A stretch of 64,000 nt of DNA from positions 1,376,001 to 1,440,000 of the forward strand of contig CATQHZ020000001.1 of NCBI GenBank assembly GCA_958296135.2, written 5' to 3'. Shown here in pieces: positions 34,280 to 50,073 of this stretch. The position numbers and the translations under genes are program-made. The stretch is from an uncultured Poribacteria bacterium (GTDB lineage: Bacteria; Poribacteria; WGA-4E; WGA-3G). Numbering within the stretch: position 1 is the stretch's first letter; each line of letters starts with the position of its first letter. Below the pieces are notes generated by a model. That model was not told the origin of the DNA and ran no database searches. It saw only the letters and a program-made list of their open reading frames with translations.

Positions 34280-35230
34280 ATGGCACATCAGGCTTTACCG
34301 ACACTCCCTCGGCGGCGTTTAGGAAGGACCGGATTAAGCATCCCGGTTATTCCGTTCGGCACGCAAGGCTTTGGCAACAACTTCGGGTTTGTTTCGGATG
34401 AGGATGCGGTGGCACTCGTCAAACACGCCGTGTCTATCGGTGTCAACCATTTCGATTGCGCGCGCTGTTATGGCGATTCGATGCGGAAACTGGGCTTGGC
34501 ACTCCAAGAAATCCCGCGCGAAGATGTCATTATTACCGCGCGACTCTGCTGCCATTCTGCGGCGGAGTGGGGCGGCTACGGCCAAGGCAGACCGGATTAT
34601 TCCGCCGAGCGCGCGATTGCCGATCTGGAAAGTCAGTTAGAGTTGCTCGGCACGGATTACTTAGATGGGATGCTCATTCACGACCCGGGCGAGATCGATC
34701 CGACGCTAGAAAAAGGCGGAACATTGGCTGGGCTGCTGCAGTGCAAAGCGCGCGGCTTAGTCCGCTTCCTCGGTTACGGGATGCGTCCGCACGATTTTCA
34801 TTTGAAGGCGATGGCCACCGGCGATGTCGATCTTATCTTGTGCTTCAACGACTACAATCTTGTCCGCCAGACGGCTGTTGATGCTATCCTTCCTGCCGCC
34901 GCTGAAGCGGATATCGGTGTGATGAACGGCTGGTCGATCTTGCGCGGCATTCTGACAGGCGTTGACATTGATGCGCAAATCGCGAAGGGACGTTGGCGGA
35001 ACGATGGCGATGTGCCGCGCGCGCGCGAAATCTGGCAGTGGTGCCTCCAAGAAGATGTGAATTTGCTCCAGCTGGCGCTTCAATTCTGTCTACGCGAAGA
35101 GCGCATCCACGGCAATAATATCGGCAATCTCAACGTTGAGCAGCTTGAGGCGAACGTTCGTGCTGCGAGCGTACCCCTCCCGGAGGAGGTGTGGGAGAAG
35201 TACGAAGCACGGTTCGGTTGTCGTCCCTAG
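34280..35230 (+). CDS. Aldo/keto reductase
   Basis: RRLGRTGL; NHFDCARCYG; LGTDYLD..IHDP. Confidence 0.88.
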   Translation: MAHQALPTLPRRRLGRTGLSIPVIPFGTQGFGNNFGFVSDEDAVALVKHAVSIGVNHFDCARCYGDSMRKLGLALQEIPREDVIITARLCCHSAAEWGGYGQGRPDYSAERAIADLESQLELLGTDYLDGMLIHDPGEIDPTLEKGGTLAGLLQCKARGLVRFLGYGMRPHDFHLKAMATGDVDLILCFNDYNLVRQTAVDAILPAAAEADIGVMNGWSILRGILTGVDIDAQIAKGRWRNDGDVPRAREIWQWCLQEDVNLLQLALQFCLREERIHGNNIGNLNVEQLEANVRAASVPLPEEVWEKYEARFGCRP

Positions 35231-36414
35231 CGGTGGTTTGACGTTGTCTTGGCGGGGTTTCTGCTTTTATCGGGCTGAAAAGACGTTACGAAGCCGTTTC
35301 TTTCCTTCAACATCGGCATAAATTTATGATGCGCGCGCGGGAACGGGTATTGCTCAAGTTCCTCAAGCCGAATCCACTTTGCGTCTATCGGCCCGTTCAA
35401 CGCTACCTCGCCTGCCTGATAATCGCACTGAAAGACATCTACGACAATCTTGAAGTGGGTGAAAGCGTGTCGGACGCGGGTGAGGTATGTGAGATTTTCA
35501 ACGGCGAGGTTGACAGTCTCGGCTATGTGGCGGTGGCACGCCTCTTCAGCTGTTTCGCCTTCGGTGAGTCTGCCGCCTGGAAATTCCCAGAGCCCGCCGA
35601 GCAAACCATCTAGGGGCCGCTGCGTTATCAAGATTTCTCCTTGCGGTTCCTCCGATGATTCGGCCAAGCCCCCTTCGGAAACAGCGATTTTGTGAATAAC
35701 GCCGACAGCGAGGTGATATTCTGGAATCGGTTTCGCTTTCCGTCGGACAGGCACCTCGTCTTGGCGGGCTGTTTGGAACGCCTGACAGCAGGAATGCACC
35801 GGGCACACAATGCAGGTGGGTGATTGTGGGCGGCAGACTGTTGCTCCTAATTCCATCATCGCCTGATTGAAAGTCCCCGGTGCTTCTTGCGCGAGCAGTG
35901 CATCCGCCTTTTCCTGAAATCGCTTCGTGGCGGAGGCCTCGTTAATGGGTGTTTTCATGTAAAAGAGGCGCGCTAGCACGCGTTTGACGTTTCCATCGAC
36001 AGCGGCGTAAGGCGCGTTAAAGGCGATACTCTGCACGGCGGCGGCACTATAGTCCCCAACCCCCGGCAACTTTCGGAAAGCGGTGTAGTCGTTCGGTATT
36101 TTCCCATCCAATTCTGCGACGATAATTTTCGCCGCCTTGTGCAGGTTCCTGGCCCTGGTATAGTAGCCCAATCCTTCCCAAAGTTTCAGCACGGTTTGCA
36201 GCTCTGCTTCTGCGAGCTGCTGAACGGTGGGCAATCTATCAATGAATTTCTGATAGTATGCCATCACCTTTTTAACCTGCGTCTGCTGGAGCATTACCTC
36301 AGATACCCAGATATAGTAAGGGTTGCGGGTGTTCCGCCACGGCATCTCGCGCTGGTAGGTTTGGAACCAGTCCAACAGCGCGTTTTGAAAGTGAGGGTAG
36401 TCTTTTTTCGTCAT
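35227..36414 (-). CDS. mutY: A/G-specific adenine glycosylase
   Basis: WVSEVMLQQT; GLGYY; LPGVG; VDGNV; 4Fe-4S CxxxxxxCxxCxxxxxC; GLWEFPGG NUDIX-like tail. Confidence 0.95.
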   Translation of the reverse strand: MTKKDYPHFQNALLDWFQTYQREMPWRNTRNPYYIWVSEVMLQQTQVKKVMAYYQKFIDRLPTVQQLAEAELQTVLKLWEGLGYYTRARNLHKAAKIIVAELDGKIPNDYTAFRKLPGVGDYSAAAVQSIAFNAPYAAVDGNVKRVLARLFYMKTPINEASATKRFQEKADALLAQEAPGTFNQAMMELGATVCRPQSPTCIVCPVHSCCQAFQTARQDEVPVRRKAKPIPEYHLAVGVIHKIAVSEGGLAESSEEPQGEILITQRPLDGLLGGLWEFPGGRLTEGETAEEACHRHIAETVNLAVENLTYLTRVRHAFTHFKIVVDVFQCDYQAGEVALNGPIDAKWIRLEELEQYPFPRAHHKFMPMLKERNGFVTSFQPDKSRNPAKTTSNHR

Positions 36415-36475
36415 GTAGAATATCCGATCGGCGTGCTTTGGAAGCGCGATGGGCGGAAACCGTAGAAATCCGCCC

Positions 36476-37192
36476 TTACAAAGAGATTGCGATTCGGAAG
36501 CTAACGTTATGCACGGCGCGGATGGGTTCATAAGCGGCGCGATTTGCGCAACGGGCAGCAAATTCGCCTCGCGCCGCCCATGAGCCGCCTCTGATGACTT
36601 TCCTCCGCCCTTCAATTGGCCCCTGCGGATTTTCTGAAGGGGAGTATTGATAGGTTTGCGCGTGAAACCAGTCGCTGCACCAGGAATATGCATTTCCCGC
36701 CATATCGTGGCAACCGTAGGGACTGACTCCCTCTGGGTAGCTGCCGCCTGGCGTTAAACGTTTTAGACGCGCCTCTGAGGTATTTGCTTTGCCCTGTGTC
36801 CAGTCGTTTCCCCACGGGTATTCGCGTCCATCGGTGCCGCGCGCGGCCTTCTCCCATTCCGCTTCTGTCGGTAAACGATATGCCTCTCCGATGGTTGCGC
36901 GGAGCCATTCCAAAAAGTTCTCCGCATCATGCCAACTGATTCCGACGACAGGGCACGCTGCGCCATTGAAGCGTTCATCTCCCCAAAACAGCGGCTTGGG
37001 ATAGCCGGTGGCATCAACGAATTGCGCGTATTGTGCGTTCGTGACGTGATAGGTGCCGATGGCGTAAGCATCGAGTGTGACGCTGCGCTGGGGTTCCTCC
37101 GGGTCTGTCTTGCGCAATCCGGTGGGGTAGGTGCCCATTGTGAAGGGTCCGGCGGTGATTTGGGTGAGAGGGTAGTTGAGGGCTTCAATCAT
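36476..37192 (-). CDS. FGE-sulfatase (formylglycine-generating enzyme-like) domain protein
   Basis: RLPTEAEWEKAARG; DMAGN; RGGSW. Confidence 0.9.
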   Translation of the reverse strand: MIEALNYPLTQITAGPFTMGTYPTGLRKTDPEEPQRSVTLDAYAIGTYHVTNAQYAQFVDATGYPKPLFWGDERFNGAACPVVGISWHDAENFLEWLRATIGEAYRLPTEAEWEKAARGTDGREYPWGNDWTQGKANTSEARLKRLTPGGSYPEGVSPYGCHDMAGNAYSWCSDWFHAQTYQYSPSENPQGPIEGRRKVIRGGSWAARGEFAARCANRAAYEPIRAVHNVSFRIAISL

Positions 37193-37340
37193 AGCATTAG
37201 TATATCATATTTGTCTCTTTTTTTCGCGAAAAAAGCGAATTTTCTCATTTTTTTTATTATTTTTGGAAAAGAAGTGCATTTTATGCAACCTTAAAAAAGG
37301 AATCCTCTTTTTAGGTCCGCTGGGACCTAAAGAGTCGGAG

Positions 37341-38220
37341 CGCGCGGGGGCCTGTGCCTCGCGATCCTTCGATCGTCACGGAAACCGTCACTTTCACCGT
37401 AGGGCGAGGGCCGTTACGGTCACGTCTACAGTAAACGTGCGTGTGTCGCCCTGCGTAAACACGCTACCTTTAACGTTGTCCTCTCTGCCGCCTCGCTGCC
37501 GAGATGTCCACTGTCCCTCGCGATCCTTCGATCGTCACGGAAACCGTCACTTTCACCGTAGGGCGAGGGCCCGGCGATCGCGAATCGCCGAGGGTTTCCC
37601 TCGCGATCTCCCGACCTGAGCGGCAAACGGCTGCAGTCCAGCGGCCGCGTGTGCTTTCTGATGCGCGCCAGCATGGCGAGGGACAGGCCCTCGCCCTACG
37701 GTAAAAGGGGCCGCTTGTTGCCTGGCGAGGCACAAGACCTCGCCCTACGGTTTGAGAGGCGTATTTAGTCACCGTAGCGCGAGGGCCGTTACGCCGAAAC
37801 GTTGTCCTCTCTGCCGCCTCGCTGCCGAGATGTCCACTGTCCCTCGCGATCCTTCATCGAAACGGGAAATGCCACTTTCACCGTAGGGCGAGGGCCCGGC
37901 GATCTCGAATCGCCGAGGGTTTCCCTCGCGATCTCCCGACCTGAGCGGAAAACGGCTGCAGTCCAGCGGCCGCGTGTGCTTTCTGATGCGCGCCAGCATG
38001 GCGAGGCACAGGGCCTCGCCCTACGGTAAAAGGGGCCGCTTGTTGCATGGCGAGGCACAGGACCTCGCCCTACGGGAAAAGGGACGCTTAAGCACAGCGA
38101 TGCATCAAGACCGGGGGCATCGAGACCAGGAGGTCTCTCCTACCGGGAAGGAGGCGAGACCTATGAAGCATCGAGACCAGGATGTCTCTCCTACCGGGAA
38201 GGAGGCGAGCCCTCCGGGGG
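37341..38220. repeat. BIME-like cluster of GTAG-REP palindromes (families A and B)
   Basis: Multiple CGTAG(G/C)GCGAGGGCCTGTCCCTCGC variants and GGTAGGAGAGACCTCCTGGTCTCGATG copies in both orientations. Confidence 0.9.
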
Positions 38221-38228
38221 TTAGGGTC

Positions 38229-40574
38229 TTAAGGAGTAACAGCCCTCGCACAACGAAAACCGATGTCGTAGAACGTGCGCGTTGGCGTATCTTGGTTGCG
38301 ATTGGCGACGCGCAGGGACAGCGCGGCATTGTCCCAACTGCCACCCCGCAACACGCGGAAGCTGTCGGTCGGGAGACTTGTGAAGTTATCACGTAGCCCT
38401 TGGATTGTTGTCTCCCCACCAGCGATGGGATTCCGACTGTTATCAGAAACGAAGTAGAAATCCCCCTCATACGCATCCAGACACCACTCCTCCACATTGC
38501 CGGCCATGTCGTAGAGGCCGTAGCCGTTTGGTGGATCACTCCCAACGGGTGCGGTATCGCTGACCACGAAATTCCCCTCGTCGTCCCAGACCCCGTAGTT
38601 TGCATCGGCGAGGGTGATTGTGTCGCCCCAGGGATACTTCTTGCCTTCAAGTCCGCCGCGTGCGGCGTATTCCCACTCCGCCTCGGTTGGGAGGCGTTTG
38701 CCGGCCCAGTCTGCATACGCCATGGCAGCATACCAAGACACGTAGACCACGGGGTGGTTTGCCTTCCCCTCAGGATAGTCGTTCCCGTTCCAGTCATCAA
38801 GGTACTCGCCCTCGTGGAATTTGGCATCAATGTTGTCTTTTTGCCATTGTGGATTTGCGTCGACAAAGGCCTTGAACTGCGCGTTCGTGACTTCGTAGAC
38901 ATCCATGTAGAATGCGTCCAAGTGGACGGTATGCACGGGCTGTTCGTCACGAAACCAGTCAGCCTCCCAGCCTTCAGCTTCAAGAAGGTCAGCTTCGTCG
39001 GCGAGGTTGCTGCCCATCTGGAATGTGCCGGCGGGGATGAGGGCCATGCCTTCGGGCGTTGTTGTTTCTACCGGTGGCGTTTCCACGATAGGCGTAACGG
39101 TTCCCCTCGCACAACGAAAACCGCGGCCGCTGGACGTGCCCGTTGGCGTATCGAAGATGCGAATGGCGACACGCGGGATCTCCGCGGAATCGTTCCAACC
39201 GCCACCCCGCAACATGCGGTCTGACTCAACACTTGTGAAGTTATCAAGAATCCACTGGAGCGTCTTACCACCGGCGATGGGATTCCGACTGTTATCAGAA
39301 GTAACGTAGAAACCGGCATCCCATGCGTCAAGGCACCACTCCCACACGTTACCCGCCATGTCGTATAAGCCGTAGCTGTTTGGTGGATAACTCCCTACGG
39401 GTGCGGTATCGCCGACACCCTCCACGAAATCCCCCTCGTCCCAGACCCCGTAGTTTGCATCGGCGAGGGTGATTGTGTCGCCCCAGGGATAGTTCTGTCC
39501 CGCAAGTCCGCCGCGTGCGGCGTATTCCCACTCCGCCTCGGTTGGGAGGCGTTTGCCGGCCCAGTCTGCATACGCCACGGCGGCATACCAAGACACGTAG
39601 ACCACGGGGTGGTTTGCCTTCCCCTCAGGATAGTCGTTCCCGTTCCAGAGATGAAGGTAATTGCCATCGTGGAACGTGGCATCGATACTCTCCTTTTGCC
39701 AGTGTGGATTTGCGTCGACAAAGGCCTTGAACTGCGCGTTCGTGACTTCGTATTTGTCCATGTAGAATGCGTCTAAGTGGACGGTATGCACGGGCTCTTC
39801 GCGCTCCCACGCGCCCACGTTATTGTTACCCATTTGGAATGTGCCGGCGGGTATGAGCACCATGCCTTCGGGTGGTGTCGGTTGTGTGACTACGACAGGT
39901 GGCGTGCCGGTGCCGGTGCCGGGTGCCTCGCCGAGATGGCGTGCGACGAGCACCAAGTCGCTGACATTGACTTGGCCATCGCTATTGACATCTACCCGCG
40001 GATTTGCAGGCGCGCGCGAGCCGAGGCTTCGCGCCACGAGGACTAAGTCGCTGACGTTGACGGTTCCATCCTGATTGACATCCCAGGCGGCACCACTGCT
40101 TTTGGTAACCTGGCCGTTCACGGTAGTCACCGGCAGGTTCTGCCCGTTTACGTCCGGCAGTATGACGTTGCGTAGGCTCAGCGTTGAGGCTTTGGCGGCC
40201 CCGACGCGAAACGTCACCGTGGCGAGGGTGCCGCTGCTGTTCGTTGCGGCACTGCCCGCGGCGGCTGTCAGCTTCACGCGGTTACCAGACACCTGCGGTG
40301 CCGGGGCAAAGGCGCCTGCCGGTAAGTATGTCGCATTGGCTGCGGCGACATACGTCAATGCCGATGTATCAAATTCGACGGTGAGTTCATAGCCGGCAAT
40401 CCCGCGGCCGTAGCGGATTTGAATGTTGACTTCCAGCGTGCCCCCGGCAGCGGGCGATGCAACGGGAGAGGGACTTACGGAGACAACGGCTACGGCTTGT
40501 CCGTAACTCATTGCTGTTGCGCCGAGGCACAGGATGATGGTTAAAAGCCAAACGAGGCTTGTTCGGTTTTTCAT
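38229..40574 (-). CDS. Secreted cohesin-dockerin-(FGE/CLec)x2 protein, putative DGR target with two variable regions
   Basis: Signal peptide; cohesin-like YELTVEFD..SGTLATVTF; dockerin DVNQDG/DVNSDG; two RLPTEAEWEYAARGG domains, each ending in a variable RGGxW..GFRCAR segment. Confidence 0.9.
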   Translation of the reverse strand: MKNRTSLVWLLTIILCLGATAMSYGQAVAVVSVSPSPVASPAAGGTLEVNIQIRYGRGIAGYELTVEFDTSALTYVAAANATYLPAGAFAPAPQVSGNRVKLTAAAGSAATNSSGTLATVTFRVGAAKASTLSLRNVILPDVNGQNLPVTTVNGQVTKSSGAAWDVNQDGTVNVSDLVLVARSLGSRAPANPRVDVNSDGQVNVSDLVLVARHLGEAPGTGTGTPPVVVTQPTPPEGMVLIPAGTFQMGNNNVGAWEREEPVHTVHLDAFYMDKYEVTNAQFKAFVDANPHWQKESIDATFHDGNYLHLWNGNDYPEGKANHPVVYVSWYAAVAYADWAGKRLPTEAEWEYAARGGLAGQNYPWGDTITLADANYGVWDEGDFVEGVGDTAPVGSYPPNSYGLYDMAGNVWEWCLDAWDAGFYVTSDNSRNPIAGGKTLQWILDNFTSVESDRMLRGGGWNDSAEIPRVAIRIFDTPTGTSSGRGFRCARGTVTPIVETPPVETTTPEGMALIPAGTFQMGSNLADEADLLEAEGWEADWFRDEQPVHTVHLDAFYMDVYEVTNAQFKAFVDANPQWQKDNIDAKFHEGEYLDDWNGNDYPEGKANHPVVYVSWYAAMAYADWAGKRLPTEAEWEYAARGGLEGKKYPWGDTITLADANYGVWDDEGNFVVSDTAPVGSDPPNGYGLYDMAGNVEEWCLDAYEGDFYFVSDNSRNPIAGGETTIQGLRDNFTSLPTDSFRVLRGGSWDNAALSLRVANRNQDTPTRTFYDIGFRCARAVTP

Positions 40575-40619
40575 TGTAGTTTCTCCTTTTTTTATCGTGT
40601 GGGACGTATTTAGTCCCGT

Positions 40620-41082
40620 GGTGCGGTGGTCTGTCCACCGCGAGTTTTCAGCGACACGAAAGATGCCATTTGCACCGTAGCGCGAGGGCCGTTACGGTCA
40701 CGTCTACAGTAAACGTGCGTGTGTCGCCCCGCGTAAACACGCTACCTTTAACGTTGTCCTCTCTGCCGCCTCGCTGCAGAGATGTCCACTGTCCCTCGCG
40801 ATCCTTCATCGACACGAAAAATGCCACTTTCACCGTAGCGCGAGGGCCTGTCCCTCGCGATCCTTCATCGACACGAAAAACGGCTGCAGCCTAGCGGCCG
40901 CGTGGCGAGGCACAGGACCTCGCCCGACGGGAAAAGGGACGCTTAAGCACAGCGATGCATCAAGACCGGGGGCATCGAGACCAGGAGGTCTCTCCTACCG
41001 GGGAGACGAGACCTATATGAAGCATCGAGACCAGGAGGGCGCGCCTACCGGGAAGGAGGCGAGCCCTCCGGGGGTTAGGGTC
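40620..41082. repeat. Intergenic REP composite cluster
   Basis: Family A and B palindromes plus the extended insert module. Confidence 0.88.
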
Positions 41083-42549
41083 TTAAGGAGTAACGGTTCC
41101 CCTCGCACAACGAAAACCGAGGTCGCTGCGCGTGTCCGCCGGCGAATCGAAGCGGCGATAGGCGACGCGCAGGTACCGCGCGGGAGTGGCCCAACTGCCA
41201 CCCCGCAACACGCGGAAGGAATCAACACTTGTGAAGTTATTTAGTATCCACTGGATCGTCGTCGCCCCAGAGAGTGGATTCCGACTGTTACGAGAAACGA
41301 AGTAGAAATCCCCATCATACGCATCCAGACACCACTCCGACACATTGCCTGCCATGTCGTAGAGGCCGTAGCCGTTTGGTGGATAACTCCCTACGGGTGT
41401 GGGATCGCCGACATGCCAATCGTAGTTTGCATCGTCGGCGGTGATTGTGTCGCCCCAGGGATACTTCTTGCCTTCAAGTCCGCCGCGTGCGGCGTATTCC
41501 CACTCCGCCTCGGTTGGGAGGCGTTTGCCGGCCCAGTCTGCATACGCCATGGCAGCATACCAAGACACGAGGACCACGGGGTGATTCGCTTTCCCAGAGG
41601 GGTAGTTATTCCCACTCCAGTCATCAAGGTACTCGCCATCGTGGAATTTGGCATCAATGTTGTCTTTTTGCCATTGTGGATTTGCGTCGACAAAGGCCTT
41701 GAACTGCGCGTTCGTGACTTCGTAGACATCCATGTAGAATGCGTCCAAGTGGACGGTATGCACGGGCTTTTCGTTATCGGACGCGTCCTCGTCGTCTCTG
41801 CCCATTTGGAATTCCCCGGCGGGGATGAGTACCATGCCTTTGGGTGGCGTAGGTTGTGTGACTACGACAGGTGGCGTGCCGGTGTCGGTGCCGGGTGCCT
41901 CGCCGAGATGGCGTGCGACGAGCACCAAGTCGCTGACATTGACTTGGCCATCGCTATTGACATCTACCCGCGGATTTGCAGGCGCGCGCGAGCCGAGGCT
42001 TCGCGCCACGAGGACTAAGTCGCTGACGTTGACGGTTCCATCCTGATTGACATCCCAGGCGGCCCCGCTGCTTTTGGTAACCTGACCGTTCTCGGTAGTC
42101 ACCGGCAGGTTCTGCCCGTTTATGCTTGTCAGCAGGACGTTTTGCAGGCTCAGCGTTGAGGCTTTGGCGGCCCCGACGCGAAACGTCACCGTGGCGAGGG
42201 TGCCGCTGCTGTTCGTTGTGGCACTGCCCGCGGCGGCTGTCAGCGTCACGCGGTTACCAGACACCCGCGGTGCCGGGGCAAAGGCGCCTGCCGGTAAGTA
42301 TGTCGCGTTGGCTGCGGCGACATACGTCAATGCCGATGTATCAAATTCAACGGTGAGTTCATAGCCGGCAATCCCGCTGCCGTTGCGGATTTGAATGTTG
42401 ACTTCCAGCGTGCCCCCGGCAGGGGGCGATGCAACGGGAGAGGGACTTATGGAGACGACGGCGACGGCTTCTTGTCCGTAACTCAGTGCTGTTGCGCCGA
42501 GGCACAGGATGATGGTTAAAAGCCAAACGAGGCTTGTTCGGTTTTTCAT
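41083..42549 (-). CDS. Secreted cohesin-dockerin-FGE/CLec protein, putative DGR target
   Basis: Paralog starting MKNRTSL at 42549 with AAAGGAG RBS; upstream ORF extension is REP read-through; one terminal VR. Confidence 0.9.
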   Translation of the reverse strand: MKNRTSLVWLLTIILCLGATALSYGQEAVAVVSISPSPVASPPAGGTLEVNIQIRNGSGIAGYELTVEFDTSALTYVAAANATYLPAGAFAPAPRVSGNRVTLTAAAGSATTNSSGTLATVTFRVGAAKASTLSLQNVLLTSINGQNLPVTTENGQVTKSSGAAWDVNQDGTVNVSDLVLVARSLGSRAPANPRVDVNSDGQVNVSDLVLVARHLGEAPGTDTGTPPVVVTQPTPPKGMVLIPAGEFQMGRDDEDASDNEKPVHTVHLDAFYMDVYEVTNAQFKAFVDANPQWQKDNIDAKFHDGEYLDDWSGNNYPSGKANHPVVLVSWYAAMAYADWAGKRLPTEAEWEYAARGGLEGKKYPWGDTITADDANYDWHVGDPTPVGSYPPNGYGLYDMAGNVSEWCLDAYDGDFYFVSRNSRNPLSGATTIQWILNNFTSVDSFRVLRGGSWATPARYLRVAYRRFDSPADTRSDLGFRCARGTVTP

Positions 42550-42599
42550 GCTAGCTTCTCCTTTTTTTCTAGTGTGGGACGTATTTAGTCCCGTAGTGC

Positions 42600-43007
42600 G
42601 GTGGGCTGTCCACCGCGAGTTTTCCGCGACACGAAAGATGCCATTTGCACCGTAGCGCGGGGGTCTGTCCGCCGCGATCGTTTGATTGAAACGAAAACCG
42701 TCACTTCCACCGTAGGGCGGGGGCCCGGCGATCGCGAATCGCCGAGGGTTTCCCTCGCGATCTCCCGACCTGAGCGGAAAACGCCTGTGGCCCCGAGGCC
42801 GCGGCCGCTTTCTGATGCGATCGATGCCTGGCGAGGCACAGGACCTCGCCCTACGGTAAAAGGGGCCGCTTGTTGCATGGCGAGGCACAGGACCTCGCCC
42901 TACGGTAAAAGGAACGCTTAAGCACAGCGAGGCATCAAGACCGGGAGCATCGAGACCAGGAGGTCTCTCCTACCAGGGAGGAGGCGAGCCCTCCGGGGGT
43001 TAGGGTC
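42600..43007. repeat. Intergenic REP composite cluster
   Basis: Family A and B palindromes. Confidence 0.88.
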
Positions 43008-44945
43008 TTAAGGAGTAACAGCCCTCGCACAACGAAAACCGAGGTCGTAGGACGTGCTCGCTGGCGACCTGCCGCCGCGATTGGCGACGCGCAGGTACTG
43101 CGCGGTTTCGTAGAAATCGCCATCCCGCAACACGCGGAAGGAGCCGGTCGGGATACTTGGGAAGTTATCACGTAGCCCTTGGATTGTCTCCCCACCAGCG
43201 ATGGGATTCCGACTGTTATCAGAAACAGCGTAGAAATGGGCATCATACGCGTCAAGACACCATTCCTCTACGTTCCCCGCCATGTCGTAGAGGCCGTAGC
43301 CGTTTGCAGGATAACTCCCTACGGGTGTGGTATCGCCGACACCCTCCACGAAATTCTCCTCGTCGTCCCAGACCCCGTAGTTTGCATCGGCGAGGGTGAT
43401 TGTGTCGCCCCAGGGATAGTTCTGTCCCGCAAGTCCGCCGCGTGCGGCGTATTCCCATTCCGCCTCGGTTGGGAGGCGTTTGCCGGCCCATTGCGCGTAG
43501 GCCATGGCGGCATACCAAGGCACCGAAGTCACCGGATGGTTGGCTTCCCCGGAGGGGTAGTTATTGCCACTCCAGAGTTTGAGGTAAGTGTTGTCGTGGA
43601 ATTTGGCATCAATGTTGTCTTTTTGCCATTGTGGATTTGCGTCGACAAAGGCCTTGAACTGCGCGTTCGTGACTTCGTAGACATCCATGTAGAATGCGTC
43701 CAAGTGGACGGTATGCACCGGCTGTTCGTCACGAAACCAGTCAGCGTTCCAGTCTTCAGCTTCTTCGTCGGCGAAGTTGCTGCCCATTTGGAATGTGCCG
43801 GCGGGGATGAGTACCATGCCTTTGGGTGGCGTAGGTTGTGTCACTATGGCAGGTGGCGTGACGGTGCCGGTGCCGGGCGTCTCGCCGAGATGGCGTGCGA
43901 CGAGCACCAAGTCGCTGACATTGACTTGGCCATCGCTATTGACATCTACCCGCGGATTTGCAGGCGCGCGCGAGCCGAGGCTTCGCGCCACGAGGACTAA
44001 GTCGCTGACGTTGACGGTTCCATCCTGATTGACATCCCAGGCGGCCCCGCTGCTTTTGGTAACCTGACCGTTCTCGGTAGTCACCGGCAGGTTCTGCCCG
44101 TTTATGCTTGTCAGCAGGACGTTTTGCAGGCTCAGCGTTGAGGCTTTGGCGGCCCCGACGCGAAACGTCACCGTGGCGAGGGTGCCGCTGCTGTTCGTTG
44201 TGGCACTGCCCGCGGCGGCTGTCAGCGTCACGCGGTTACCAGACACCCGCGGTGCCGGGGCAAAGGCGCCTGCCGGTAAGTATGTCGCGTTGGCTGCGGC
44301 GACATACGTCAATGCCGATGTATCAAATTCGACGGTGAGTTCATAGCCGGCAATCCCGCGGCCGTTGCGGATTTGAATGTTGATTTTCAGCGTGCCCCCG
44401 GCGGCGGGCGATGCAACGGGAGAGGGACTTATGGAGACAATGGCATCGGCTGGCCCCTCCTCTGGCTCCGCGTCCGAGACTACTGGCTCCACGACTACTG
44501 GCGCATCGCGATCGCCTTCCCCATCGTCTCGCGTATCGTCTACCAACGCAGCGGCGAGTTCGTCAATTGCGGCAGGGTCCTGCAGCAACGCCTGCACTTG
44601 TGCATCCTGGAGCATCGTCTGGAGTTCCGCATCCGTTTTCAGCAGCGTTATGAAATCCGGGTCTATCCCAGGTACGAACTGTGTGAGCAGATCCGGTTGA
44701 GTCACGACGAGCGTGATAGTCTGCGGCGTCAGGAGTGCTTGAATATTCGGTGCTTTAAGCCCCTCCAAGACAGCCGGCAGGATTTCTTGAATGTCCTCCC
44801 GTTGCAGTGTTGCCCTGTATTTTTCCAGCACCTGTTGGGCGAGCGGCGCATTGTCCTGCACGACTTCTTGTCCGTAACTTATTGCTGTTGCGCCGAGGCA
44901 TAGGATGATGGTTAAAAGCCAAAAAAGGCTTGTTCGGTTTTTCAT
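43008..44945 (-). CDS. Secreted helical-domain-cohesin-dockerin-FGE/CLec protein, putative DGR target
   Basis: MKNRTSL start at 44945; extra Q/L-rich helical domain and acidic linker before the cohesin; one terminal VR. Confidence 0.9.
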   Translation of the reverse strand: MKNRTSLFWLLTIILCLGATAISYGQEVVQDNAPLAQQVLEKYRATLQREDIQEILPAVLEGLKAPNIQALLTPQTITLVVTQPDLLTQFVPGIDPDFITLLKTDAELQTMLQDAQVQALLQDPAAIDELAAALVDDTRDDGEGDRDAPVVVEPVVSDAEPEEGPADAIVSISPSPVASPAAGGTLKINIQIRNGRGIAGYELTVEFDTSALTYVAAANATYLPAGAFAPAPRVSGNRVTLTAAAGSATTNSSGTLATVTFRVGAAKASTLSLQNVLLTSINGQNLPVTTENGQVTKSSGAAWDVNQDGTVNVSDLVLVARSLGSRAPANPRVDVNSDGQVNVSDLVLVARHLGETPGTGTVTPPAIVTQPTPPKGMVLIPAGTFQMGSNFADEEAEDWNADWFRDEQPVHTVHLDAFYMDVYEVTNAQFKAFVDANPQWQKDNIDAKFHDNTYLKLWSGNNYPSGEANHPVTSVPWYAAMAYAQWAGKRLPTEAEWEYAARGGLAGQNYPWGDTITLADANYGVWDDEENFVEGVGDTTPVGSYPANGYGLYDMAGNVEEWCLDAYDAHFYAVSDNSRNPIAGGETIQGLRDNFPSIPTGSFRVLRDGDFYETAQYLRVANRGGRSPASTSYDLGFRCARAVTP

Positions 44946-44994
44946 TGTAGTTTCTCCTTTTTTTCTCGTGTGGGACGTATTTAGTCCCGTAGTG

Positions 44995-45527
44995 CGGTGG
45001 TCTGTCCACCGCGAGTTTTCAGCGACACGAAAGATGCCATTTGCACCGTAGGGCGAGGGTCTGTCCGCCGCGATCGTTCGATTGAAACGAAAAACGGCAT
45101 TTGCACCGTAGGGCGAGGGCCCGGCGATCTCGAATCGCCGAGGGTTTCCCTCGCGATCTCCCGACCTGAGCGGCAAACGGCTGCAGTCCAGCGGCCGCGT
45201 GTGCTTTCTGATGCGGTCGATGCCTGGCGAGGCACAGGACCTCGCCCTACGGTAAAAGGAACGCGCGCGGCCTGGCGAGGCACAGGACCTCGCCCTACGG
45301 TAAAAGGAACGCGCGCGGCCTGGCGAGGGGAACCCTCGGCGATTCGTGATCGCCGGGCCCTCGCCCTACGGTGAAAAGAACGCTTAAGGCACAGCGATGC
45401 ATCAAGACCGGGGGCATCGAGACCAGGAGGTCTCTCCTACCGGGGAAGCATCGCGACCGGGATAAAGCCTCGAGACCGGGATGTCTCTCCTACCGGGAAG
45501 GAGGCGAGACATCCGGGGGTTAGGGTC
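44995..45527. repeat. Intergenic REP composite cluster
   Basis: Tandem GGCGAGGCACAGGACCTCGCCCTACGGTAAAAGGAACGCGCGCGGCCT units and family B copies. Confidence 0.88.
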
Positions 45528-47822
45528 TTAAGGAGTAACAGCCCTCGCACAACGAAAACCGATGCTGCCGAAGAGCGTGTTCGAAGGCGCATCGCTGCCG
45601 CGATTGGCGACGCGCAGGGTCGGCGCGGTAAGGTTCCAATCGCTACCCCGCAACACGCGGTGTGACTCAACACTTGTGAAGTTCTCAAGTAGCCATTGGA
45701 TTGTCTGTCCACCGGCGATGGGATTCCGACTGTTATCAGAAACAGCGTAGAAATTGGCATCATACGCGTCAAGGCACCGCTCCCACACGTTCCCCGCCAT
45801 GTCGTAGAGGCCGTAGCCGTTTGGTGGATAACTCCCTACGGGTGTGGTATCGCCGACATGCAAATCGTAGTTTGCATCGTCGGGGGTGATTGTGTCGCCC
45901 CAGGGATACTTCTTGCCTTCAAGTCCGCCGCGTGCGGCGTATTCCCACTCCGCCTCGGTTGGGAGGCGTTTGCCGGCCCACTGCGCATACGCCATGGCAG
46001 CATACCAAGGCACGTAGACCACGGGGTGGTTTGCCTTCCCCTCAGGATAGTCGTTCCCGTTCCAGCCCACGAGGTACTCGCCATCGTGGAACGTGTCATC
46101 AATGTTGTCTTTTTGCCATTGTGGATTTGCGTCGACAAAGGTCTTGAACTGCGCGTTCGTCACCTCGTAGACATCCATGTAGAATGCGTCCAAGTGGACG
46201 GTATGCACGGGCTTTTCGTCATTGTCCGCGTCCTCGTCATCGCTGCCCATTTGGAATTCCCCGGCGGGGATGAGTACCATGCCTTCGGGCGTTGTTTCTA
46301 CCGGCCTCGCACAACGAAAACCGCCGCTGTGGTCCGCGTTCGTTGGCGAACGGTAGTCGCGATAGGCGACACGCAGGAACAACGGCGCGTCACCGCGCCA
46401 AGCGCCACCCCGCAACACGCGGTAGCTGTCGGTCGGGAGACTTGTGAAATTGTCGAGTATCCCCTGAATCGTCTGCGCGCCCGAAATCGGATTGCGACTG
46501 TTGCGAGACTTAGCGTAGAACTTGTCATCGTATGCGTCAAGGCACCATTCCGCCACATTCCCCGTCATGTCGTATAAGCCGTAGCCGTTTGGTGGATAAC
46601 TCCCAACGGCTACGGGTTCAAATCCGCCATCTGCGTTATGCCAATTGTAGTTTGCATCGCCGGTGGTGACTGTGTCGCCCCAGGGATACTTCTGTCCGGC
46701 GAGTCCGCCGCGTGCGGCGTATTCCCACTCCGCCTCGGTTGGGAGGCGTTTGCCGGCCCATTGCGCATAGGCCATGGCGGCATACCAAGACACCCAATTC
46801 ACCGGATCGTTGGCTTCCTCAGGGGGATAGTTATTGCCATCCCAGTCCACGAGGTAATCGTCTTCGTGGAATTTGGCATCAATGTTGTCTTTTTGCCAGT
46901 GTGGATTTGCGTCGACAAAGGCCTTGAACTGCGCGTTCGTCACCTCGTAGACATCCATGTAGAATGCGTCCAAGTGGACGGTATGCACGGGCTGTTCGTC
47001 ACGAAAATCGTCAGCCTCCCAGCCTGCAGTTTCAGTAAGGTCAGGTTCTTCGTCGGCGAAGTTGCTGCCCATTTGGAATGTGCCGGCGGGTATGAGCACC
47101 ATGCCTTCGGGGCCTTCGGATGGTGTCGGTTGTGTGACTACGACAGGTGGCGTGCCGGTGCCGGTGCCGGGTGACTCGCCGAGATGGCGTGCGACGAGCA
47201 CCAAGTCGCTGACATTGACTTGGCCATCGCTATTGACATCTACCCGCGGATTTGCCGGCGCGCGCGAGCCGAGGCTTCGCGCCACGAGGACTAAGTCGCT
47301 GACGTTGACGGTTCCATCCTGATTAACATCCCAGGCGGCCCCGCTGCTTTTGGTAACCTGACCGTTCTCGGTAGTCACCGGCAGGTTCTGCCCGTTTACG
47401 TCCACCAGTTTGACGTTGCGTAGGCTCAGCGTTGAGGCTTTGGCGGCCCCGACGCGAAACGTCACCGTGGCGAGGGTGCCGCTGCTGTTCGTTGCGGCAC
47501 TGCCCGCGGCGGCTGTCAGCGTCACGCGGTTACCAGATACCTGCGGTGCCGGAGCAAACGCGCCTGCAGGTAAGTATGTCGCATTGGCTGCGGCGACATA
47601 CGTCAATGCCGATGTATCAAATTCGACGGTGAGTTCATAGCCGGCAATCCCGCTGCCGTTGCGGATTTGAATGTTGACTTCCAGCGTGCCCCCGGCGGCG
47701 GGCGATGCAACGGGAGAGGGACTTACGGAGACAACGGCTACGGCTTGTCCGTAACTCATTGCTGTTGCACCGAGGCATAGGATGATGGTTAAAAGCCAAA
47801 CGAGGCTTGTTCGGTTTTTCAT
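45528..47822 (-). CDS. Secreted cohesin-dockerin-(FGE/CLec)x2 protein, putative DGR target with two variable regions
   Basis: Same architecture as 38229-40574. Confidence 0.9.
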   Translation of the reverse strand: MKNRTSLVWLLTIILCLGATAMSYGQAVAVVSVSPSPVASPAAGGTLEVNIQIRNGSGIAGYELTVEFDTSALTYVAAANATYLPAGAFAPAPQVSGNRVTLTAAAGSAATNSSGTLATVTFRVGAAKASTLSLRNVKLVDVNGQNLPVTTENGQVTKSSGAAWDVNQDGTVNVSDLVLVARSLGSRAPANPRVDVNSDGQVNVSDLVLVARHLGESPGTGTGTPPVVVTQPTPSEGPEGMVLIPAGTFQMGSNFADEEPDLTETAGWEADDFRDEQPVHTVHLDAFYMDVYEVTNAQFKAFVDANPHWQKDNIDAKFHEDDYLVDWDGNNYPPEEANDPVNWVSWYAAMAYAQWAGKRLPTEAEWEYAARGGLAGQKYPWGDTVTTGDANYNWHNADGGFEPVAVGSYPPNGYGLYDMTGNVAEWCLDAYDDKFYAKSRNSRNPISGAQTIQGILDNFTSLPTDSYRVLRGGAWRGDAPLFLRVAYRDYRSPTNADHSGGFRCARPVETTPEGMVLIPAGEFQMGSDDEDADNDEKPVHTVHLDAFYMDVYEVTNAQFKTFVDANPQWQKDNIDDTFHDGEYLVGWNGNDYPEGKANHPVVYVPWYAAMAYAQWAGKRLPTEAEWEYAARGGLEGKKYPWGDTITPDDANYDLHVGDTTPVGSYPPNGYGLYDMAGNVWERCLDAYDANFYAVSDNSRNPIAGGQTIQWLLENFTSVESHRVLRGSDWNLTAPTLRVANRGSDAPSNTLFGSIGFRCARAVTP

Positions 47823-47859
47823 GCTAGATTCTCCTTTTTTCGTAGTGTGGGACGTATTT

Positions 47860-48170
47860 AGTCCCCGTGGTGCGGCAAACGGCTGCAGCCCAGCGGCCGC
47901 GACCGTTTTCTGATGCGGTCGATGCCTGGCGAGGGACAGGCCCTCGCCCTACGGGCTGCGGGGCCGATCTGCTTCTCCCTACCGTAGCGCGGGGGCCCGG
48001 CGATCGCGAATCGCCGAGGGTTTCCCTCGCGATCCTTCGTCGAAACGGGAAACGCCACTTTCACCGTAGCGCGAGGGCCCGGCGATCGCGAATCGCCGGG
48101 TTTTCCCTCGCCCTATGGGCTGTGGGGCCGCTTTGCTTCTCGCCCTACGGTTTCAGGGCGTTTTTAGTCA
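47860..48170. repeat. Intergenic REP composite cluster
   Basis: Family A palindromes in both orientations. Confidence 0.85.
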
Positions 48171-48179
48171 CCCCTGTCC

Positions 48180-48848
48180 CTATTGACTTATCTGCGCATT
48201 GACGGCCTGCGGCTCGGAAGTGGTACCGCCGTGGTCCAGTTTCACATCGGCGAGCGTCAGCGTGGATGCTTTGCGCGCGATGACTTCAAACGTTACCGTG
48301 GCGAGCGTGCCGCTTTCTGCCGCACTGGCTGCGCCCGCGCCAGCGGTGATGGTGATCTGGTTGTCATTTTTCAGCATCGGTGGTGCGAAAAACGCGCCTG
48401 ACAGATAGTCCCCGTTCGCACTCTCCACATAGCGGAGTGCGGTGGCATCGAACATGAGCGTGAACTCATAGCCGAAGACGTTTTCTGCGCCTGCAATCTG
48501 AAATTCCACTACCAGCTGCTCGCCGACAGCTGGGGATGTCACCGCTGCGGGCATGATGCTGACAACGGGGCCCGCGGCAACCACTGGCGGTGGCACCACA
48601 GGTGTGGGCGGTTCTACTGGCGGTGGCACCACAAGTGTGGGCGGTTCTACGGGTGGCACGGTTGTGTCCTCGCCGCCATCCGCCGGTGGTTCAACAGGAG
48701 TTGGTGGTTCGACGGTTGGCATCGTTGTGTCGCCACCGCCGCCATTAGCGGGGGGCATAACCATGTCATCCATCGGGCCACAGCTGCCCAAAGCGATTCC
48801 GATGAGGACGACTGATACGAGAATGAAAAGCGTTTTTACTGTTTTCAA
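48180..48848 (-). CDS. Lipoprotein with Pro-rich linker and C-terminal cohesin (putative anchoring scaffoldin)
   Basis: AAGGAG RBS and TTG 48848; lipobox LGSC; PPTPVEPP linker; YEFTLMFDATALRYV..SGTLATVTF cohesin-like domain. Confidence 0.8.
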   Translation of the reverse strand: MKTVKTLFILVSVVLIGIALGSCGPMDDMVMPPANGGGGDTTMPTVEPPTPVEPPADGGEDTTVPPVEPPTLVVPPPVEPPTPVVPPPVVAAGPVVSIMPAAVTSPAVGEQLVVEFQIAGAENVFGYEFTLMFDATALRYVESANGDYLSGAFFAPPMLKNDNQITITAGAGAASAAESGTLATVTFEVIARKASTLTLADVKLDHGGTTSEPQAVNAQISQ

Positions 48849-48911
48849 AATAGACTCCTTATGAAAAAATAGAATTGCCAGCGATGGGTGCACGGAGCGA
48901 TTCCGTTCTCC

Positions 48912-49200
48912 CCGGTAGGAGAGACCTCCTGGTCTCGATTTTTCAGGTAGGAGAGACCTCTGGTCTCGATGTGTTGTGCATCGGGACAGGGATGTCCCTC
49001 CTACCGGTGTATTGAGACGCGGGATGTCCCTCCTACCGTATCGGGCAGGGATGTCTCTCCTGCCGGAGAAAATATCGTCTGCACCTAAAACTGGATGTCA
49101 CTGCGCGAGGCCTCCTTGCGCCCATCGCGGCGTGAAGTTGTGAGTTCTGCCAAATGATTGATGAAGTTGAAAATCGAGACGCGGGATGTCCCTCCTACAG
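48912..49200. repeat. Cluster of family B GTAG-REP palindromes
   Basis: GGTAGGAGAGACCTCCTGGTCTCGA and inverse GGGATGTCCCTCCTAC copies. Confidence 0.85.
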
Positions 49201-49287: not shown

Positions 49288-50073
49288 CTATTTCATGATG
49301 ACCATTTTGCCGGTTGCAGAAAAATCACCGGCGGTGAAGGTGTAGAAATAGACACCGCTTGCCACCGGTTCACCGAGCGCGTTTTTTCCATCCCAATACG
49401 CGGCGCGAGCGCGGTGTTGATAGGCACCTGCTGCCTGATACCCTAATGCCAATTCCCGCACGAGTGCCCCCTGCATCGAATAGATGGACAGTGTCACCTC
49501 GGCCGGCGCGGCGAGTTGGTAAGGGATCCATGTCTCGGGATTGAACGGGTTCGGATAGTTCGGCAACACGGCTGTTTCTTGCACCGGCTGCCGTGTTTCT
49601 GACAGCGTTGCGTCCGTGGAACTATTAATCACCTGCGGTTCGGCAAGCCCGCCTGTTGTCACCGGCAGCAACACCTCGGATAACGTCAGCGGCGTTGTTT
49701 GCTGTGACAGCACTTCAAACGTGAGAGAAGCTAGTGAGCCTTCCCCTGTGTTGCCGCCCGATAGCGATGCTGCTACTAGCGTTACTTGACTCGCATTGAC
49801 TTGCGTCGGTGCCACAAATGCATCCGACAGATAGTCGCCGTTGGTGCTTGAGACGTAGCGCAGTGCTGTCGGATCGAACGCCAGCGTGAACTGATACGCG
49901 TCAATGGGCTGCTGGCTGGTGATGTCCACGTTGAAAACCACGTGTTCGCCGACGGCCGCGGGTGTCGTCTGCGCGGGCGTGATGCGCACGGTATCGCGCG
50001 TTGCTGCCAGGCTGGTTGCCAAAACGCAGCAAACGCCGAGTAGTAATGTGAGGGTGAAAATCTTTTTGTTCAT
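49288..50073 (-). CDS. Secreted cohesin protein with FlgD/T9SS-like C-terminal domain
   Basis: Signal peptide; YQFTLAFDPTALRYV..GSLASLTF; LPNYPNPFNPETWIPY..WDG..SGVYFY. Confidence 0.82.
   Translation of the reverse strand: MNKKIFTLTLLLGVCCVLATSLAATRDTVRITPAQTTPAAVGEHVVFNVDITSQQPIDAYQFTLAFDPTALRYVSSTNGDYLSDAFVAPTQVNASQVTLVAASLSGGNTGEGSLASLTFEVLSQQTTPLTLSEVLLPVTTGGLAEPQVINSSTDATLSETRQPVQETAVLPNYPNPFNPETWIPYQLAAPAEVTLSIYSMQGALVRELALGYQAAGAYQHRARAAYWDGKNALGEPVASGVYFYTFTAGDFSATGKMVIMK

Follow-up and report, generated by a model that had tools for sequence, protein, structure and literature searches.

Variable regions of the diversity-generating retroelement type in a poribacterial cohesin–dockerin gene array, probably orphaned by the loss of their engine

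How did six segments of one poribacterial gene array come to vary mainly at positions 1 and 2 of their codons while the third stays nearly fixed, and what could have written such a pattern in a genome with neither a matching reverse transcriptase (RT) nor a template? This question is raised by a stretch of 64,000 nucleotides of an uncultured Poribacteria bacterium (GenBank assembly GCA_958296135.2, contig CATQHZ020000001.1, positions 1,376,001 to 1,440,000), called the window in the following; the genome holding it is designated G000 and its 5.01-Mb contig C1. An earlier note, written from the letters of the window alone, had described six segments with an adenine-mutagenesis signature and taken them for variable regions (VRs) of a diversity-generating retroelement (DGR). 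Our analysis bears out this signature by the codon pattern and by a comparison with the templates of related genomes, and makes it rather likely that the VRs are orphaned, their cassette having been deleted and the engine lost from the genome. The delimitation of the segments in the note agrees within 1–2 nt with tracts which have the length of a template repeat (TR) and which are as follows (IMH, initiation of mutagenic homing):

38246..38357, minus strand: VR A2 (terminal), a 112-nt tract homologous to the TRs of the relatives, then the IMH-like GCGAGGGCTGTTAC
39107..39218, minus strand: VR A1 (internal, closing the first FGE domain), IMH-like end with a 3-nt insertion (AGGGGAACCGTTAC), three single non-A changes
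41103..41214, minus strand: VR B, no private non-A change
43025..43136, minus strand: VR C, the most drifted copy, five private non-A changes including TGG>TTC
45545..45659, minus strand: VR D2 (terminal), one extra codon in the NNC run
46307..46421, minus strand: VR D1 (internal), one extra codon and an altered IMH-like end (AGGCCGGTAGAA)

In a codon alignment of the six copies 58, 43 and 89 of 214 scaffold columns are variable at codon positions 1, 2 and 3, respectively, whereas in the 27-codon variable stretch the corresponding numbers are 19, 17 and 6 of 27. The pairwise differences show the same contrast, with 0.13, 0.10 and 0.22 in the scaffold and 0.45, 0.39 and 0.09 in the variable stretch; the third positions are quieter there than in the scaffold and the first and second positions are near saturation. 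This inverted codon-position pattern is unlike ordinary paralogue divergence. About ten hypervariable codons keep a fixed third C without a single synonymous change between C and T. All the codon series that had been read by hand (after the W position, after GTC GCC, after CGC, at the NCG codon and in the NNC run of the final four codons) were reproduced in the alignment.

A BLAST comparison of the VRs with the genome returned further C-termini of FGE proteins, among them five long matches outside the window, all inside FGE open reading frames. Two genes about 2.8 Mb away (C1:4243331-4245310 and 4247198-4249381), which encode Peptidase_C14/CHAT–PEGA–FGE proteins and are called caspase genes here, carry the identical invariant skeleton and 3′ end, giving a total of eight VRs with one skeleton, six in the window and two in the caspase genes. 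Five other FGE paralogues in the genome show ordinary third-position drift. A 40-nt VR-like match at C1:2427757-2427796 was considered as a TR and rejected, being a copy of the intergenic repeat of the array; it lies just after an rpmE-like gene.

The genome's own TR being absent, the adenine signature was tested with the TRs of three relatives (G004, G009 and G024), which are independent of the window. At 29 of the 30 positions where at least two of these three TRs have an A, the six window VRs are variable, as against 15 of the 81 other positions (Fisher p 1.4e-14); with all eight VRs the counts are 29/30 and 16/81. Measured against the relatives' TRs, the variation is thus located at template adenines, and several of the 15 variable non-A positions are sites at which the three TRs disagree among themselves. 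In the A columns the eight VRs have 96 A, 71 G, 42 T and 31 C. The relatives themselves show the same kind of recoding: at least one VR per cassette differs from its TR almost exclusively at adenines, the mismatches by TR base being 18 A/1 C/1 T, 18 A/2 C/1 T and 16 A/2 C/2 G/1 T, and of the five non-A mismatches in the third pair several fall beyond the IMH junction. The template reconstructed in the earlier note could also be recovered, since its 41-nt core, CGC AAC AAC AAT ACG CCA ACG AAC ACG AAC AAC AAC AAC GG, is identical to the TR of G007, G101 and G110, all three of the same family.

As a control for selection at the protein level we compared the codons at those columns where the amino acid is identical. 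In the scaffold the codon differs in 1116 of 3970 such pairwise comparisons (28%) and in the TR-length tract in 34 of 580 (5.9%), whatever pair is taken; between the window copies and the caspase copies the scaffold codon difference reaches 43–50%. The low silent difference of the tract argues that a common source has overwritten it, at a time when the paralogues had long since diverged. As codon positions 1 and 2 are at the same time scrambled, descent, codon bias and gene conversion are all insufficient to account for it.

The 3′ ends add to this picture. The IMH-like end GGTTTTCGTTGTGCGAGGGCTGTTAC is exact in five of the eight VRs and identical to that of the relatives' VRs, and the relatives' TRs read GCGAAGAC at the IMH* position, unlike the VR ends, as is typical of an IMH. 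It is changed by a 3-nt insertion in A1 and B and altered in D1. The spacer and hairpin which follow the cognate VRs of the relatives are absent after the terminal VRs A2, B, C and D2; to our knowledge not every DGR has such a GC-rich hairpin downstream. The first of the two caspase genes, with its end at C1:4245310, retains the canonical spacer and a 10-bp hairpin stem, which are decayed in the second caspase gene, and it is the best-preserved DGR target of the genome. Judged from sequence comparison with the relatives, the six window tracts and the two caspase-gene tracts are VRs written by a DGR.

The non-A differences and single-codon indels to which the note had drawn attention are real (15 of 81 non-A columns; an extra codon in both D1 and D2). 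Private non-A changes are missing in VR B and the first caspase gene, number one in A2, D2 and the second caspase gene, one plus the codon insertion in D1, three in A1 and five in C. The survey of Wu et al. 2018 (PMC5758913) reports that 23% of DGRs have non-A-to-N substitutions, that indels of 3 nt or its multiples are found opposite AAC runs, and that up to eight targets stand in tandem. Since live DGRs are known to show both features, substitutions of this kind and 3-nt indels are no proof of decay here.

We then have to ask where the engine is. The assembly comprises four contigs with 5.19 Mb and is 94.7% complete. No match to RVT_1 (PF00078) was obtained on any of the four contigs at E<=0.01, while the identical search finds the DGR RTs of the relatives at about 1e-23. 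With the RTs of the three relatives as queries tblastn gave a best E of 0.56 in the assembly, with their Avd proteins nothing better than 0.18, and a search of the family with the RT of G004 gave no match in G000. The Avd profiles PF05635 and PF22296 had no match in the assembly at E<=0.1; PF05635 is a weak probe for this type of Avd (24.9 bits on the Avd of a relative, under the cut-off), and PF22296, which scores 83 bits on the relatives' Avd, was therefore searched as well. The TR motif was not found in the assembly with up to 3 mismatches. RT, TR and Avd are thus all missing, and what the note had said of the window, that it contains neither RT nor template, holds for the whole assembly. 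The genome-wide search it had proposed, for a TR with adjacent RT and avd, found none on the four contigs. An Rfam scan of 36000-49000 found no family at gathering score. Neither a VR nor a TR with the skeleton turned up when the contigs of JGI metagenomes and the viral contigs of IMG/VR were scanned with exact patterns; given the strict matching this is weak evidence.

Relatives assembled into one contig score 94–96% complete, and C1 may be essentially the whole chromosome. The other contigs carry no cassette and have a GC content of 0.37 (C2), 0.67 (C3) and 0.60 (C4) compared with 0.544 of C1; they may be binning contaminants. For a population check we used Logan contigs from four runs of one sample, probably the source of the genome; contigs of this kind drop rare variants. 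A single contig runs across each VR and shows no differing letters, and variants of at least 5% are not listed in any tract; the matching was done at 90% likeness, a level that VR alleles with changes at many A sites would not reach. One joint listed in these data, 39126-46398, connects the A1 and D1 tracts with just 23 letters on one side, which is usually a repeat effect.

The relatives show what the missing parts look like. RVT_1 matches occur in 16 of 41 related genomes, and DGR-size RTs (353–361 aa) in three genomes of the same family, G004, G009 and G024, each of which has a complete cassette (loci L013-L015) consisting of one or more FGE targets, a bAvd gene (PF22296, 83 bits), the RT (RVT_1, 1.5e-23) and a TR. 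Among the 112 genomes of the family the RT clade is present in nine, and in none of the three genomes of the window's genus; the TR motif is likewise present in nine of 112, a different set from the nine with the RT. The two other genomes of the genus have no RT, Avd or TR save for one orphan Avd in G002. Several stages can be lined up within this one family: the complete cassette, Avd with TR, TR only, Avd only and VRs only. G007 (L135 7193-7660) has a target followed by an Avd which is cut at about residue 87 (1–87) and runs straight into the TR, the RT being deleted, and in G116 (L136 7712-7752) a lone TR lies beside a 319-aa FGE target. The hairpin follows the cognate VRs in G004, G009, G024 and G002, with 8–10 bp across the relatives and the one gene here.

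G002, which belongs to the same genus, has the gene order of the window: its locus (L155 = C1:5266000-5280000) holds a cohesin protein with a secretion-tail-like end, a further cohesin protein and a single cohesin–dockerin–FGE target; after the target follow a spacer, a 9-bp hairpin, an intact 122-aa bAvd (L155 5393-5761) and repeats, with RT and TR absent. The VR-like ends of G002, at least 12 in number, have a skeleton of their own (CGC GGC GGC ... TTG CGC ... TGC GCG) distinct from that of G000, and none of them is A-rich, the maximum A fraction being 0.18. From the separate skeletons it follows that a template was active in both species after their split. The flanks of the G002 locus were tried as a synteny frame for the window and rejected, as they map to C1:3.376-3.385 Mb of G000, where an unrelated 1071-aa open reading frame lies and no deletion junction can be defined.

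The genome of G009 shows that such targets can be remote. Besides its intact DGR it has 18 VR-end/IMH sites between 212 kb and 4.80 Mb of its contig C1 (loci L137-L153). Of the 17 sites off the cassette, five, lying up to about 3.4 Mb from the TR, agree with the resident TR at every one of 80 non-A positions or depart from it at a single one; the remaining 12 show 4–10 non-A mismatches, many of these sites having a second skeleton in common. Orphaned VR families thus occur also beside a living DGR, which fits template turnover in the lineage.

The genes that carry the VRs of the window, their upstream neighbours and the intergenic DNA at the 3′ end of the array are as follows:

37193..38228, no strand: intergenic stretch immediately 3′ of gene A, made up of a short repeat found throughout the genome; presumed former site of Avd, RT and TR as judged by synteny
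38229..40574, minus strand: gene A, 781 aa, with signal peptide, cohesin and dockerin, and with a VR at the end of each of its two FGE-sulfatase domains (C-type-lectin fold)
41083..42549, minus strand: gene B, 488 aa, start MKNRTSL, with cohesin, dockerin and one FGE domain
43008..44945, minus strand: gene C, 645 aa, with an extra N-terminal region, cohesin, dockerin and one FGE domain
45528..47822, minus strand: gene D, 764 aa, with cohesin, dockerin and two FGE domains
48180..48893, minus strand: upstream neighbour, 237 aa, Pfam Cohesin 2.4e-11, with a homologue at the corresponding place in G002
49288..50073, minus strand: upstream neighbour, 261 aa, with cohesin, FlgD_ig and a weak Por_Secre_tail match (Pfam)

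All four genes have a signal peptide and Pfam matches to Cohesin and Dockerin_1, with FGE-sulfatase once in B and C and twice in A and D; for gene A the values are 1.6e-09 (Cohesin), 5.8e-11 (Dockerin_1) and 1.4e-131 (FGE-sulfatase, in two stretches). The FGE-sulfatase matches (PF03781, 2.4e-63 to 1.4e-131 across A–D) extend to the last residues of each domain, and among the structure matches listed for gene A are a solved formylglycine-generating enzyme (FGE; 6muj, 7.7e-40) and TvpA (2y3c, 1.9e-17). The VRs are thus 3′-terminal in genes or domains of C-type-lectin fold, and the FGE-type targets named in the note were correctly recognised. By eye, no cysteine lies between RGG and GFRC in any of the six tracts. 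Catalytic FGE presumably has a cysteine pair in this C-terminal segment (we take the position from the human enzyme), and the Cys-free tracts suggest a binding module, not an enzyme. A cohesin–dockerin display in which one protein has two variable lectin modules is an uncommon design of a DGR target; two VR-bearing modules in one protein are found also in a 582-aa protein of G004.

The two-domain genes look like fusions of single-domain genes (at 39089-39106 and 46290-46306): the end of the first domain of gene A (…GTVTP) equals the terminal …GTVTP-stop of gene B and is followed by a short linker and the second FGE domain. The protein encoded at 49288..50073 is the synteny anchor to the DGR loci of the relatives, with 49% identity over 263 aa to the gene adjoining the target of G024 and 83% (tblastx) to the neighbour in G002. 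In G024 a homologue of gene B (51% over 503 aa), preceded by the matching upstream neighbour, is directly followed by Avd, RT and TR.

At the corresponding place 3′ of gene A the window has repeats, with 59–280 copies per 50-nt bin over 37350-38200. The spacers of the array (37300-38200, 40600-41080, 42550-43000, 44950-45520 and 47830-48180) all belong to one short palindromic repeat family with 59–280 genome copies, which has no Rfam match and is present also in both other genomes of the genus; the Logan contig depth reaches thousands over these intergenic repeats. A possible RT remnant in 37150-38260, a 24-residue match (E 0.001 against the 1.1-kb stretch), was rejected as spurious, as it occurs twice inside the repeat of 59–280 copies. 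The 14-mer GCGAGGGCNGTTAC of the IMH-like VR end occurs 90 times in C1, for instance at 37394-37418 and 37769-37793 of the window, and about 85 of these copies belong to one repeat subfamily (consensus ...ACCGTAGCGCGAGGGCCGTTACGCCGAAAC...). By eye, its 21-nt core agrees with the VR end at all but four positions (17 of 21), and it was not found in five relatives with up to 1 mismatch; the likeness may be a coincidence or may point to a link with the recognition site of the retroelement. Directly downstream of the repeat block lies an open reading frame of 238 aa (36476-37192, minus strand) with an FGE domain only, whose C-terminus (…VSFRIAISL) lacks the VR skeleton as well as the GFRCAR end. 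It overlaps a MutY-like gene, namely the 5′ portion of that gene's long open reading frame (35227-36693).

Taking these data together we consider it rather likely that the VRs of G000 are the orphaned products of a DGR whose engine has been lost. The cassette would once have stood directly 3′ of a cohesin–dockerin–FGE target, as it does in the sister genera, and was probably deleted from just 3′ of gene A. While it was active, the RT, aided by Avd, would have copied the TR into cDNA, misreading adenines, and the cDNA, guided by the IMH, would have replaced the 3′ end of the target gene, thereby recoding the ligand-binding face of the C-type-lectin/FGE fold. The vacated site would now be occupied by short repeats, and the target would have expanded to a tandem array of four genes, two of them fused and with two domains each. 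The genome would be left with an unchanging set of eight distinct binding tips, of which six sit on secreted proteins that possibly dock via cohesin and dockerin onto the neighbouring cohesin proteins, one with a secretion-tail-like C-terminus. The low silent drift in the VR tracts places the last retrohoming long after the paralogue divergence and argues for a recent loss. This is the 'relic system' that the earlier note had offered as its fallback, and it is the reading favoured by the evidence.

Several points weigh against it. The low silent drift, the five intact IMH ends and the one intact hairpin fit an active system equally well. Activity in G000 and G002 after their split requires two losses in one genus, which is less parsimonious than a shared engine that was not assembled, and with four contigs and 94.7% completeness the cassette may sit in an assembly gap or belong to a plasmid or phage that was not binned. 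There is no credible remnant of RT or Avd at 37193-38228, and the deletion has left no mark. Finally, the target of G002 lies in a chromosomal neighbourhood different from that of the window, and the former cassette site rests therefore on the local gene order alone.

These points lead to the alternative that the VRs are live remote targets, served in trans by an RT, Avd and TR outside the assembled contigs, be it in a gap, on an unbinned plasmid, phage or integrative element or on a strain-variable island. We hold this to be unlikely. The silent drift of 5.9% in the tract compared with 28% in the scaffold would be as expected, as would the exact IMH ends in five of eight VRs and the spacer and hairpin which the first caspase gene (end at C1:4245310) has retained. 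The species-specific skeletons of G000 and G002 speak for activity after the split, the Avd reading frame is intact in G002, and action in trans over megabases is real in the family, as the sites of G009 show; incomplete loci diversified in trans are also reported in a study on Thiohalocapsa (PMC10907252). However, none of the four contigs has RT, Avd or TR, and at 5.01 Mb and with a completeness equal to that of the one-contig relatives C1 may be essentially whole, while C2–C4 deviate strongly in GC and hold no cassette. Moreover the cassettes of the relatives are chromosomal and adjoin a target, the copies have from 0 to 5 private non-A changes each, the hairpin is missing at the four terminal VRs of the window, and no contig of the JGI metagenomes or of IMG/VR matched the skeleton exactly. 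The claim of the note that the segments are remote, multi-copy targets of a DGR elsewhere stands as regards number and distance, given the two VRs 2.8 Mb off and the example of G009, but not as regards a DGR elsewhere in the assembly.

Still less probable, in our estimate, is that the engine is a transient, mobile part of the Poribacteria pangenome, which enters a genome, rewrites all genes with an IMH, imposes its own skeleton and leaves. Such a visiting engine would explain the species-specific skeletons without an RT, the second VR family of G009 and the common Avd-only and TR-only relics, and the array of the window would then be a set of standing docking sites which await the next visit or are served at present from outside the assembly. 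That no retroelement was involved, and that we are dealing with ordinary paralogues whose binding residues were driven apart by positive selection, the likeness of third positions and flanks being due to codon bias or gene conversion, is extremely improbable: lectin-like paralogues often evolve fast at their binding sites, the genome is GC-rich at third positions and a tandem array favours gene conversion, but selection leaves unexplained both the match of 29 of 30 positions to the adenines of templates from other genomes and the fixed third C in about ten hypervariable codons, the tract is equally uniform in the caspase–FGE genes despite a scaffold difference of 43–50% at synonymous-proxy sites, and positions 1 and 2 would likewise have been made uniform by gene conversion.

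Returning to the reading of orphaned VRs, its consequences are both practical and biological. DGR surveys based on the RT miss genomes which retain the written VRs alone, and sets of VRs without an engine can, as this locus shows, be recognised from nothing more than their codon pattern and confirmed afterwards with relatives' templates. The RT being kept in just nine of 112 family genomes points to frequent loss of the mutator with its products retained, which bears on the useful lifetime of the diversity made by a DGR. The lineage of the Poribacteria includes sponge symbionts. Our literature search found no paper linking Poribacteria or sponge symbionts with DGRs, the supplementary tables of the large surveys lying outside its coverage, and a search with loose terms on VRs without an engine returned nothing relevant.

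The mechanistic prototype of these systems is the DGR of the Bordetella phage BPP-1 (mtd, avd, TR and brt), in which adenines of AAC codons are recoded and the IMH at the 3′ end of the VR is followed just downstream by a hairpin. The adenine-specific recoding and the IMH are shared, and the hairpin is found in the relatives and in one gene here. In contrast to BPP-1, the targets described here are chromosomal, multiple and of the FGE type, whereas Mtd is of another lectin subtype and phage-borne; the present genome has no engine, and no hairpin follows the four terminal VRs of the window.

Another known system is the DGR of Treponema with TvpA (PDB 2Y3C). There too the VR is at the C-terminus of an FGE-type C-type-lectin fold and one template serves several dispersed targets, in Treponema denticola seven non-adjacent ones according to Wu et al. 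(PMC5758913). Treponema has RT and TR and this genome has neither; the N-termini here are cohesin–dockerin or caspase–PEGA, and two proteins have two VR domains each. Surveys such as that of Wu et al. start from the RT, so that VR sets without an engine are not catalogued there. In Thiohalocapsa PB-PSB1 (PMC10907252), loci with missing or pseudogenised machinery lie beside FGE-type lectin targets, some of them fused to caspase-like or conflict-system domains. Both the engine-deficient loci and the FGE-type targets have a parallel there, and the caspase-fused targets are like those known from multicellular bacteria in that study, but complete DGRs elsewhere in that genome can act in trans, whereas the present assembly has no cassette, whole or partial.

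The sister genera (G004, G009 and G024) have homologous targets, among them a full-length cohesin–dockerin–FGE homologue of 51% identity over 503 aa and a two-FGE protein of 50% over 572 aa; the upstream cohesin neighbour and the IMH are held in common, and their TRs have adenines where the window VRs vary. They have kept bAvd, RT and TR directly 3′ of the target, where the window has short repeats, and the window has four tandem targets. The kind of system is therefore already known, being the chromosomal, multi-target DGR of the FGE type typified by TvpA, and its less usual features are the cohesin–dockerin architecture, the two VR modules per protein, the expansion to four tandem target genes and an engine that is wholly absent.

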